Below are positions 60,101-64,000 of a stretch of DNA of 64,000 bases, piece after piece. The stretch comes from Escherichia coli O157:H7 (GTDB taxonomy: Bacteria > Pseudomonadota > Gammaproteobacteria > Enterobacterales > Enterobacteriaceae). The DNA is taken from assembly GCF_013167455.1 (NCBI RefSeq), contig NZ_CP038328.1; one strand, written 5' to 3'. The position numbers were made by a program. The first letter of the stretch is position 1; the number at the start of each line of letters is the position of its first letter.

Positions 60101-63100
60101 AACCATACGAATCGCCCGCTGACGGACTTCGGGGGAAAAACGAGTATTTTTAGTCATCCTGTTTACCTCTTTCTCAGGGAGTTTAGTCTCCAGGATTTCC
60201 GGGGCGGTTCAATCATTTTGCCGCAGTTTTTTCAGGGATTCGCCGTTGCCTGTTTCTTTTTACCCTTAACAACGATTTCGTTTTCAGGCTTGCCAGATAA
60301 TAAATTTGCCAATGCCTCGAGTATGAGTAATTTTTTTCGTACCTTGTCAGGATCAGTTGGTACGTCGTTGACAATGACGCTGTGGGGACGACGCGAATCG
60401 TTACACCATAGTCAGTTGACAGAAACCATCGATCAATTTAACCCCGTGTTTAATTCATCGTCACAAATTATGGATAAATACTATGGTTCGCTTTCAGGAG
60501 TTCTTAATGAAATTAATAATGAAATAACCCAGCAGTCACTTTCTATTTCTGCAAATGAGATTTTCCGTATGGCGGCTATTGCTTTTATCTTACTTACGGT
60601 TTTGGTTTGGTTTGCGAAACCGCCGTTTACAGCGAAAGGCGTTGGGTGATGGTAAAAGCAGGGGGTTATAGCGGGTAAGACTGGGGATCTTAAGTCTGCG
60701 CCATCGGCAGCATCGCTCACCCAGGGAAAGGATTGCGATGCTGCGTTGAAACGTTATTAACGGCCTTTTGCCAGATATTGCTCCATCTCTTCTTCCGGCA
60801 CCATTCCACCTCCCGTCGCCCACACCAGATGAGTGGCATTACGCAGTTGTTCTGCGCTGAAACCGTGCATCTGTTGGTAACTTACTGATGCACACACGCG
60901 CTGAGGTCCGGCCATACCCGCCAGTGCCGAAGGTTCAAGACGAATACCTTCTTCCTGCGCCAGCCAGCCAAGCATGTCATACATGGTTTGATCGCTAAGG
61001 GTATAGAAGCCATCCAGCAGACGCTCCATTGCCCGCCCGACAAAGCCTGATGCGCGACCAACTGCAAGGCCATCCGCTGCGGTAAGGTTGTCGATACCAA
61101 TATCCTGAACAGAAATCTGATCGTGTAATCCTGTATGGACGCCTAACAACATACAAGGGGAGTGCGTTGGTTCGGCAAAAAAGCAGTGAACATGATCGCC
61201 AAACGCCAGCTTAAGTCCGAATGCGACGCCACCAGGACCACCGCCAACACCACACGGCAGATAGACAAACAGAGGGTTATCAGCATCGACAATACGACCT
61301 TGCTCGGCAAATTGCGCTTTAAGACGCTGGCCTGCGACGGAATACCCAAGGAACAACGTGCGGGAATTCTCGTCATCAATAAAGAAACAGTTCGGGTCAG
61401 ACTGCGCTGCTTTACGTCCTTCCTCGACGGCAACACCATAATCTTGCTCATATTCCACGACCGTAACGCCATGGCTGCGCAGTTTCGCTTTTTTCCATGC
61501 CCGGGCATCAGCAGACATATGCACTGTCACCTTAAAGCCAATGCGGGCGCTCATAATGCCGATTGATAACCCCAGATTTCCGGTTGAGCCCACAGCAATG
61601 CTGTACTGGCTAAAGAACTGTTTAAACTCCGGAGAAAGCAGTTTGCTGTAGTCATCTTCAAGCGTCAGCAACCCCGCTTCCAGAGCCAGTTTTTCTGCAT
61701 GTGCCAGGACTTCATAAATCCCGCCGCGTGCTTTTATGGAGCCGGAAATGGGCAAATGGCTATCTTTTTTCAGTAACAGTTGCCCGCTGATCGGTTGTTG
61801 ATATTCCTTTTCCAGCCGTTTTTGCATAGCCGGAATGGCAACCAGTTCTGATTCAATAATCCCCCCAGTGGCAGCAGTTTCAGGAAATGCTTTTGCCAGA
61901 TAGGGTGCAAAACGGGATAAGCGCGCATGGGCGTCCTGAACATCCTGTTCGGTCAGGCCAACATAAGGTAAACCTTCAGCCAATGAGGTCGTGCCAGGAT
62001 TAAACCAGGTGGTTTCTTTAAGAGCAACCAGATCCTTTACCAACGGATACTGGGCGATGAGCGAGTTCATTTTAGCGTTTTCCATAGTACGTCTCTTTGC
62101 GCTTAGATGATAAATGACAGCAGGAATGTGCCCGCCAGAGCGACGACTGAAGCGATAAATGTCGCTGTCGTATAGTATTTAAATGTTTCATTGAGCGTAG
62201 CGCCGCAATATTGCTTCACCAGCCAGAAAAGCGAGTCCGTAACGATCGTGCAGCCAATCGCGCCTGAACCGATAGCAATCGCAATAATTTCCGGGCTGAT
62301 GTCGGGATACAGCGGCAGCACAATGATCCATATTTATATTTTCTTCTCCAGGTTGGCGATGCCAGTTGGCATGTTTTTCTTACTTGCCTATATGGTCACT
62401 CGTTGGCGAGAACAGAGGCGGAATTGGGTACAATTATCCGGCAATTATTGTTATTTTTTATTGTATTGCCGTGTCGGGTGATAGGGCGTCGAGAATTTCG
62501 TTGGATCTCGCCAGTGACGTCTGTTTCTGCTACAGTGCCCGTTTTACGGCAAACGGCTTGGGTATGGCTTCATTAAAGGATGTCGCACGCCTGGCGGGAG
62601 TGTCGATGATGACAGTCTCCCGGGTGATGCATAATGCAGAATCTGTGCGTCCTGCAACGCGTGACCGCGTATTGCAGGCAATCCAGACCCTGAATTATGT
62701 TCCTGATCTTTCCGCCCGTAAGATGCGCGCTCAAGGACGTAAGCCGTCGACTCTCGCCGTGCTGGCGCAGGACACTGCTACCACTCCTTTCTCTGTTGAT
62801 ATTCTGCTTGCCATTGAGCAAACCGCCAGCGAGTTCGGCTGGAATAGTTTTTTAATCAATATTTTTTCTGAAGATGACGCTGCCCGCGCGGCACGTCAGC
62901 TGCTTGCCCACCGTCCGGATGGCATTATCTATACTACAATGGGGCTGCGACATATCACGCTACCTGAGTCTCTGTATGGTGAAAATATTGTATTGGCGAA
63001 CTGTGTGGCGGATGACCCAGCGTTACCCAGTTATATCCCTGATGATTACACTGCACAATATGAATCAACACAGCATTTGCTCGCGGCGGGCTATCGTCAA

Positions 63101-64000
63101 CCGTTATGCTTCTGGCTACCGGAAAGTGCGTTGGCAACAGGGTATCGTCGGCAGGGATTTGAGCAGGCCTGGCGTGATGCTGGACGAGATCTGGCTGAGG
63201 TGAAACAATTTCACATGGCAACAGGTGATGATCACTACACCGATCTCGCAAGTTTACTCAATGACCACTTCAAATCGGGCAAACCAGATTTTGATGTTCT
63301 GATATGTGGTAACGATCGCGCAGCCTTTGTGGCTTATCAGGTTCTCCTGGCTAAGGGGGTACGTATCCCGCAGGATGTCGCCGTAATGGGCTTTGATAAT
63401 CTGGTTGGCGTCGGGCATCTGTTTTTACCGCCGCTGACCACAATTCAGCTTCCACATGACATTATCGGGCGGGAAGCTGCATTGCATATTATTGAAGGTC
63501 GTGAAGGGGGAAGTGTGACGCGGATCCCTTGCCCGCTGTTGATCCGTTGTTCCACCTGATATTATGTTAACCCAGTTGCCAGAGTGCTCCATGTTGCACC
63601 ACAGCCACTCCGTGGGAGGCATAAAGCGACAGTTCCCGTTCTTCTGGCTGCGGATAGATTCGACTACTCATCACCGCTTCCCCGTCGTTAATAAATACTT
63701 CCACGGATGATGTATCGATAAATATCCTTAGGGCGAGCGTGTCACGCTGCGGGAGGGGAATACTACGGTAGCCGTCTAAATTCTCGTGTGGGTAATACCG
63801 CCACAAAACAAGTCGCTCAGATTGGTTATCAATATACAGCCGCATTCCAGTGCCGAGCTGTAATCCGTAATGTTCGGCATCACTGTTCTTCAGCGCCCAC
63901 TGCAACTGAATCTCAACTGCTTGCGCGTTTTCCTGCAAAACATATTTATTGCTGATTGTGCGGGGAGAGATAGATTGATGCTGCTGGCGTAACGACTCAG

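Follow-up and report, generated by a model that had tools for sequence, protein, structure and literature searches.

The end of the window, by which we mean the whole 64-kb stretch of O157:H7 DNA (64,000 nucleotides) analysed here, is best read as the left end of the chromosomal csc (sucrose) regulon in its usual position between argW and dsdA, produced by one ancestral swap that left dsdA transcriptionally stranded. We put the probability of this reading at roughly 0.93. The present analysis establishes the gene identities, the exact breakpoint, how much DNA was replaced and how much was inserted, the sharing of the junction across lineages and its frequency in the population.

The interval 60700-64000 (3,301 bp) matches E. 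coli O157:H7 chromosomes at 100% identity and has the same annotation there, where RefSeq lists dsdA, a dsdX pseudogene, a LacI regulator and cscA in succession. On the minus strand, 60757-62085 encode full-length D-serine ammonia-lyase (deaminase), DsdA, of 442 aa, which matches the TIGR02035 equivalog model with 813 bits against a cutoff of 368 (E=4.4e-245, profile search), keeps the PLP-binding Lys118 and is matched by the solved structure 3ss7 across its full length. The earlier note had called dsdA intact, and with 438 of 442 residues identical to K-12 DsdA, i.e. 4 residue differences, this description holds. Together with the last 71 codons of dsdX, dsdA makes up the K-12-like part of the locus, ~99% identical to K-12 and in the same place beside emrY. 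The emrY gene itself carries an IS629 copy 545 bp past the dsdA stop codon; this insertion is private to the strain, its junction with emrY was not found in any complete genome searched, and it is unrelated to the csc/dsd join. Two O157:H7 reference genomes, H1 and H2, each match dsdA in a single place.

What remains of dsdX lies at 62103-62320 on the minus strand and consists of the last 71 codons and the stop (DsdX residues 375-445) plus 2 nt of codon 374, close to the ~70 C-terminal codons proposed in the earlier note; the N-terminal 373 codons, the promoter and the start codon are gone. The open reading frame at 62103-62321, on the same strand, matches positions 374-445 of the 445 in the NCBIfam DsdX model NF007395 (E=1.6e-42) and is identical to K-12 DsdX residues 374-445 at 71 of 72 positions by tblastn. 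Its score of 146 bits is far under the model cutoff of 618. A full-length GntP-family permease (445 aa) is not encoded, and RefSeq labels the remnant a pseudogene, 'missing N-terminus'. The GTG with which this 72-codon frame begins was made by the junction itself, since K-12 has ATG (Met374) there. No homologue of the LysR-type activator DsdC was found, either in the 64-kb window or across the 21 kb that are syntenic in the identical O157:H7 genome, the sole DsdC-like match in the window (14254-14760) being an unrelated LysR paralogue at 28% identity. The absence of dsdC had also been claimed earlier and stands at this level of identity, and neither a full dsdX nor a dsdC is present near dsdA.

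Aligned to K-12 by blastn, as the earlier note had suggested, the homology ends sharply after 62320, which corresponds to position 7621 of the K-12 locus (L002). On its left side, the csc block thus meets the dsd backbone exactly between 62320 and 62321, where ...CAGCGGCAGCA is followed by CAATGATCC in the window and by TGGGTGCAAC in K-12, without microhomology. The place proposed before (about 62322-62360) was therefore roughly right, but the junction is a sharp edge rather than a zone and lies 1-2 bp to the left of that interval. A junction reaching out to 62360 was considered and rejected. In O157:H7 TR01, 40 bp more of K-12-type dsdX replace 62321-62360, and SNPs of the O157 and K-12 alleles are interleaved as a mosaic across emrK-dsdX; since this junction is unique among 5,426 genomes and sits in a mosaic allele, we regard it as probably an artefact of assembly or polishing.

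The dsdX remnant and cscR are separated by a non-coding spacer of 243 bp (62321-62563). The two are indeed adjacent, as had been stated, but cscR does not follow the remnant directly, and it is divergent to it. The first 202 bp of the spacer (62321-62522) form a non-coding, E. coli-specific left flank of the csc block, which contains a small palindrome, ATGCCAGTTGGCAT, at 62359-62372 and has no homology to K-12 or to the csc locus of Citrobacter amalonaticus, homology to the latter starting at 62523. The spacer as a whole gave no Pfam match at E<=0.05, and in Rfam only a snoRNA hit at chance level (E=0.18). No copy was found on a genuine plasmid: the records behind the four 'plasmid' matches measure 0.37-4.9 Mb, three exceeding 1.4 Mb, and we regard them as chromosomal sequence deposited as plasmids. 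A search of 61900-64000 on either strand for a sigma-70 consensus promoter returned none.

Beyond the spacer, cscR (62564-63559, plus strand) encodes the 331-aa LacI-family repressor of the csc regulon, composed of a LacI HTH domain (PF00356) and a Peripla_BP_1 domain (PF00532). These domains, and identity at 328 of 331 positions to the 'Sucrose operon repressor (Csc operon regulatory protein)' of E. coli W, confirm that the LacI-family ORF was correctly named cscR; the three differing residues are D233A, S237P and S317R in W. Seven bases away and convergent on cscR, cscA (63567-64000, minus strand) runs off the window end. The convergent GH32 gene described before is thus present, but only 30% of it lies inside the window, namely residues 335-477 of the 477-aa sucrose hydrolase/invertase, with the C-terminal GH32 domain only (PF08244, Glyco_hydro_32C, E=3.6e-24). 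For all the elements of the locus the database matches greatly exceed chance. In the identical O157:H7 locus (L001) the full 477-aa CscA has both GH32 domains, with the catalytic motifs WMNDPNG at 36, RDP at 160 and ECP at 215, and divergent from cscA are cscK (304 aa, a PfkB fructokinase) and cscB (415 aa, a LacY-type sucrose:H+ symporter; LacY_symp, E=2.6e-193). The earlier note had pointed to the downstream DNA as the place to look for cscK and cscB, and both are intact in L001. The source for these two genes and the right junction is a reference genome that matches at 100% identity only across the window's final 3.8 kb and differs elsewhere from this strain by IS insertions, so that the intactness of cscKB in the present strain is assumed from the reference. 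The cscA-cscK intergenic region of L001 also contains two copies of the palindrome AATTGTTAACGTTAACT, 64 bp apart, as expected for LacI-type operators, and these may be the operators of CscR. No operator-like sites above chance were seen near dsdA or cscR in the window, in line with published evidence that dsdA is not a direct target of CscR (PMC7486766).

In the identical O157:H7 genome the csc block, comprising cscR, cscA, cscK and cscB, measures ~5.57 kb, and the K-12 DNA that it replaces amounts to 2,368 bp, consisting of dsdX codons 1-373, the divergent dsdX/dsdC promoter region, dsdC and 95 bp downstream. On the right, the block abuts the argW-derived att repeat TGGTGTCCCCTGCAG, where K-12 homology resumes (L002 position 9990). 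The same dsdX-csc join occurs in 2,660 of the 5,426 complete E. coli genomes and dsdC with the 5' part of dsdX in 2,771, the csc and dsd states being nearly complementary. The likeness to the EHEC type noted before is real, in that the DNA is 100% identical to O157:H7, but the arrangement is not EHEC-specific, as it is found in about half of the complete genomes and in the commensal/industrial strain W. Six other csc+ genomes of different lineages carry the same 219-bp dsdX remnant. Synonymous divergence is 0.02-0.03 for cscR and 0.04-0.07 for cscA, no higher than in the flanking emrY (0.03-0.12), and is consistent with one origin and later spread. We infer that a single replacement in an ancestor exchanged this part of the dsd locus for the csc block, and that homologous recombination acting in the conserved flanks would then have carried the swapped allele into other E. 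coli lineages.

It is possible, though we hold it only tentatively, that the swap took two steps instead of one illegitimate or homologous exchange, in which case the csc block would be the remainder of an eroded integrase-borne island at argW and a later deletion would have removed the distal part of the island, the far att site, dsdC and most of dsdX. Such a history would account for the right end of the block falling exactly at the argW-derived att repeat, and the 372 bp between cscB and this repeat encode a 60-aa piece of a DUF4942 protein, which is typical island debris. In addition, ~574 bp of E. coli-specific flank surround the core that is common to Citrobacter, and argW has been described as a recombination/integration hotspot (PMC11251922, PMC4366372). 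However, the block contains no integrase, a second att repeat is absent from its dsdX end, terminal inverted or direct repeats are missing, the left junction has no microhomology, and in C. amalonaticus the same four genes lie between yjfF and fbp with no tRNA near. A transposon or IS-bounded insertion was also considered and was rejected for the csc block, as there are no terminal repeats and no target-site duplication at its ends and no transposase inside it.

The single ancestral replacement would have brought CscR-repressed, non-PTS use of sucrose, with symport by CscB, hydrolysis by CscA and phosphorylation of fructose by CscK, and would have cost the cell its DsdC activator, its DsdX permease and the dsdXA promoter that depends on DsdC. 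The dsdA gene is structurally intact but would be transcriptionally stranded, and D-serine, still imported by CycA, would not be detoxified and would act bacteriostatically. D-serine sensitivity, dsdA silence, CscR repression and growth on sucrose are taken here from published experiments. EHEC is intolerant of D-serine, and its dsdA stays silent unless a deletion brings it under the cscA or z3622 promoter (PMC7486766). Growth on sucrose has been reported for EHEC TUV93-0/EDL933 derivatives (PMC7486766) and for strain W (PMC3032704). The prediction in the earlier note that D-serine catabolism is probably crippled is thus supported by the published EHEC experiments (PMC7486766).

It seems unlikely that D-serine catabolism has instead survived in csc+ strains through a functional dsdA expressed without DsdC, whether from an internal promoter ~115 bp upstream of dsdA in the dsdX remnant or by sucrose-induced read-through from cscA, antisense to cscR. 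The genetic layout would permit this, as cscA, the dsdX remnant and dsdA are on one strand with only cscR between them, and small deletions in cscR suffice to turn dsdA on from cscAp (PMC7486766). Nevertheless, growth of wild-type EHEC is inhibited by 1 mM D-serine, none of which is consumed, the wild-type cscAp-to-dsdA fragment has low reporter activity (PMC7486766), and E. coli W reportedly cannot use D-serine (PMC3032704). The sequence of dsdA can be read in both directions. It is intact in six of the seven csc+ genomes inspected, but the csc+ strain SCU-387 has an internal stop; pN/pS between csc+ alleles is 0.02-0.13, indicating strong purifying selection, and pS is near that of cscA in several pairs, but recombination can pass on a low pN/pS from dsd+ backgrounds.

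Slightly more doubtful still is the stronger proposal that dsdA has been under purifying selection since the loss of DsdC and DsdX and is still expressed, from a promoter in the remnant or by cscA read-through. A gene of no use at all should not show purifying selection, but recombination with dsd+ strains explains it equally well: alleles may have passed between such strains and csc+ ones, which leaves the dsdA pN/pS values compatible with either reading of what followed the loss of dsdCX. If the proposal were true, detoxification of D-serine would be coupled to the availability of sucrose. We consider it highly improbable that the junction gave rise to a new small membrane protein in the 72-codon frame at 62103-62321, instead of leaving a dead remnant there. 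Although the frame is open from the junction-created GTG, encodes the last two hydrophobic segments of DsdX and has few non-synonymous changes in most csc+ pairs, there is no Shine-Dalgarno sequence upstream of the GTG (...AAATATGGATCATT GTG) and, as stated above, no consensus promoter on either strand of 61900-64000, in lineage L008 there are 5 non-synonymous changes but 1-3 synonymous ones (pN/pS about 0.6-1.7), the ~56 synonymous sites make its conservation uninformative, and RefSeq calls it a pseudogene. With dsdA stranded by the swap, the locus represents a textbook trade-off, in which sucrose use was gained and D-serine tolerance lost, and which has been linked to the niche restriction of LEE-positive E. 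coli; it also provides a silent dsdA that small deletions can switch back on, and all of these points have been published before.

The replacement of dsdCX by csc and its effects, D-serine toxicity and a silent dsdA, are already published and well documented (Jahreis 2002; Moritz & Welch 2006; Connolly 2015; O'Boyle 2020), with published experiments in PMC7486766, PMC4366372, PMC3032704 and PMC11251922. To this our analysis adds the exact breakpoint, the sizes of the replaced and inserted DNA and the presence of the junction in about half of the complete genomes; what it gives for this window is not a discovery but an accurate annotation and a marker of the strain (O157:H7-type dsd-/csc+). The csc regulon of EC3132, W and O157:H7 EDL933 has the same genes, order, orientation and dsdX truncation as the window, and nothing of substance differs, three CscR residues in W apart. 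In EDL933 the genes are cscR z3626, cscA z3625, cscK z3624 and cscB z3623, at the argW-dsdA site (Bockmann 1992; Jahreis 2002; Archer 2011, PMC3032704). K-12, UPEC CFT073 and NMEC, in contrast, have an intact dsdCXA locus for D-serine tolerance, of which the window lacks dsdC, the promoter region and dsdX codons 1-373. The cscRAKB genes of C. amalonaticus (GCA_002919495.1) are found at a location away from argW and dsdA, and without the 202-bp left and ~372-bp right flanks of the E. coli block. They nevertheless share gene content, order and orientation with it at 80.5% nucleotide identity over 5.0 kb, and their CscR falls in the same cluster as that of the window when the proteins of the searched collection are clustered at 90% identity.

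We read the gene layout at the window end from a mechanical ORF listing and from the sequence directly. The minus-strand dsdA ORF (60757-62085, 442 codons) reaches 813 bits with TIGR02035, whose cutoff is 368; its product has four substitutions relative to K-12 DsdA, retains the PLP lysine 118 and aligns end to end with the solved structure 3ss7, which bears out the earlier note's claim that the gene is intact. Seventeen bases upstream of it on the same strand sits a 72-codon ORF (62103-62321) whose match to the DsdX model (445 positions) is confined to positions 374-445 (E=1.6e-42) and which equals residues 375-445 of K-12 DsdX, the K-12 Met374 being replaced by a Val codon; dsdX had rightly been described as cut to its C-terminal ~70 codons. 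The plus-strand LacI-family ORF proposed to be cscR (331 codons, ATG 62564 to TGA 63557-63559) has LacI HTH and Peripla_BP_1 domains, and its product is identical at 328/331 residues to the E. coli W protein, titled in one source 'Sucrose operon repressor (Csc operon regulatory protein) [Escherichia coli W]', so the assignment holds. NCBIfam has no CscR-specific model, which is why RefSeq labels the product just 'LacI family'. Although cscR is indeed the neighbor of the dsdX remnant, it does not follow directly, as a 243-bp spacer with no convincing ORF (62321-62563) intervenes. Seven bases separate its stop codon from that of the convergent cscA on the minus strand (63567-63569), which stays open past the window end; the portion present, residues 335-477 of 477, carries the GH32 C-terminal domain, as had been proposed.

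Homology to the K-12 MG1655 locus (L002) is unbroken from evgS to window position 62320, where the blastn match ends, and the alignment of the window (...CAGCGGCAGCA|CAATGATCC) with K-12 (...CAGCGGCAGCA|TGGGTGCAAC) parts at the same base; the junction is therefore 62320|62321. The previous estimate of 62322-62360 was close at its lower edge but missed the exact point. The junction itself produces the opening GTG of the 72-codon ORF. On its csc side, 39 bp in, a small palindrome, ATGCCAGTTGGCAT (62359-62372), is followed by a T-rich run, and a consensus scan scored it as a predicted terminator-like element on the plus strand. A different junction is present in O157:H7 TR01 (L003, NZ_CP033605.1, 1-6040), where 40 bp of additional K-12 dsdX stand exactly in place of 40 bp of csc flank (window 62321-62360). 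This junction was found in no other genome, and in TR01 the O157 and K-12 alleles are interleaved as a mosaic over 6 kb, with 43 K-12-like against 77 O157-like SNP sites from emrK to dsdA, which is implausible for clonal O157:H7. We therefore rejected it as a true alternative; it looks like an assembly artefact, from contamination or reference-guided polishing, in a public 'complete' genome.

Several O157:H7 chromosomes match window 60700-64000 at 100% identity, and the window genes agree with the annotation of one such locus, that of PV15-279 (L001), so the EHEC-type arrangement is upheld. The order there is evgSA, emrKY, dsdA, a dsdX pseudogene 'missing N-terminus', the LacI-family regulator, cscA, a PfkB kinase (cscK) and an oligosaccharide MFS transporter (cscB), so that both genes sought downstream are present in that genome; island debris and other mobile elements lie beyond cscB. 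In PV15-279 full-length CscA combines both GH32 domains with the WMNDPNG, RDP and ECP motifs, and domain matches identify CscK as a PfkB kinase and CscB as a LacY-type symporter. Two AATTGTTAACGTTAACT palindromes in the cscA-cscK control region would, as expected, fit LacI-type operators; no such sites occur near cscR or dsdA within the window.

The right end of the block was mapped in FORC_041 (L004), a csc+ genome chosen for its K-12-like right flank. K-12 homology restarts there at L002 position 9990, the first base of the argW-derived att repeat TGGTGTCCCCTGCAG. The missing K-12 bases, 7622-9989 (2,368 bp), take in codons 1-373 of dsdX, the dsdX/dsdC promoter region, dsdC itself and a further 95 bp, in agreement with the claimed loss of dsdC. 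The incoming block is 5,558 bp long in FORC_041; in O157:H7 its length is about 5,570 bp, and the window holds just the first ~1,680 bp of it. No terminal inverted repeats, flanking direct repeats, transposase or integrase were found for the block. Past cscB, ahead of the argW-type att repeat, a DUF4942 fragment (L001 15830-16012) hints that the block may have arrived on or beside an older mobile island.

Among 5,426 complete E. coli genomes, the dsdA-dsdX'-cscR-cscA join is a single contiguous match in 2,660, and the K-12 segment deleted here is present in 2,771 (nearly full in 2,698); thus the two states are near-complementary, each in about half of the sample, and the join is not peculiar to EHEC. 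The 219-bp dsdX remnant is identical in extent in six further csc+ genomes of different lineages, which points to a probable single origin. Synonymous divergence among csc+ alleles (cscR 0.02-0.03 and cscA 0.04-0.07, against 0.03-0.12 for emrY) is consistent with a single origin and later spread by recombination.

Several insertion sequences lie elsewhere in the window. A 1,310-bp IS629/IS1203 copy (58902-60211; orfA 59831-60157 and orfB 58944-59834, both minus strand) interrupts emrY 545 bp past the dsdA stop codon, with a 3-bp target duplication; all other genomes inspected, PV15-279 and K-12 among them, have an uninterrupted emrY, and the emrY::IS629 junction occurs in 0/5,426 complete genomes. 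A 100% identical 1,310-bp copy (45671-46980) lies inside frc (formyl-CoA transferase, oxalate operon), an insertion missing from PV15-279. Also absent from PV15-279 is a 1,308-bp IS3-family element (18584-19891), only about 95% identical to IS629, at an IS200/IS605 tnpA/tnpB spot between yfeD and gltX. In PV15-279 an ISEc8 (IS66-family) pair disrupts yfdE; the corresponding site in the window, ~51809-51816, is empty, so yfdE appears unbroken here.

The mechanism by which the substitution affects D-serine use rests on published experiments. When deletions of 1,120 bp or 5,637 bp remove cscR, dsdA comes under control of the cscA or the z3622 promoter and D-serine catabolism is regained, with no direct action of CscR on dsdA (PMC7486766); that function returned only through such deletion fusions supports the earlier note's view of a crippled pathway. 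The O157:H7 reference genomes listed each have one dsdA-matching place. The gene is intact in 6/7 csc+ genomes inspected; the divergent commensal SCU-387 (L007, NZ_CP051688.1, 3056-4384) has an internal stop at codon 374, so decay of the stranded dsdA has begun in at least one lineage. Its pN/pS in csc+ genomes is 0.02-0.13. There is thus a small chance that the gene keeps a DsdC-independent role, but recombination with dsd+ strains would account for an intact, low-pN/pS dsdA just as well.

The observation is confirmed and its interpretation supported, for a feature that is already known: the csc-for-dsdCX substitution has been described together with its link to LEE carriage (PMC4366372), in strain W (PMC3032704) and in natural isolates, where D-serine use and csc-type sucrose use are mutually exclusive and variant arrangements exist (PMC11251922). 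Homology with Citrobacter amalonaticus starts 41 bp upstream of cscR and stops 68 bp past cscB; the E. coli block therefore has two private flanks, a left one of 202 bp (62321-62522), for which protein, RNA, promoter and plasmid comparisons all gave no match, and a right one of about 372 bp, containing the 60-aa DUF4942 fragment. Between these limits C. amalonaticus has cscR-cscA-cscK-cscB in the same order as E. coli, 80.5% identical over 5.0 kb, and there the genes sit between yjfF and fbp.
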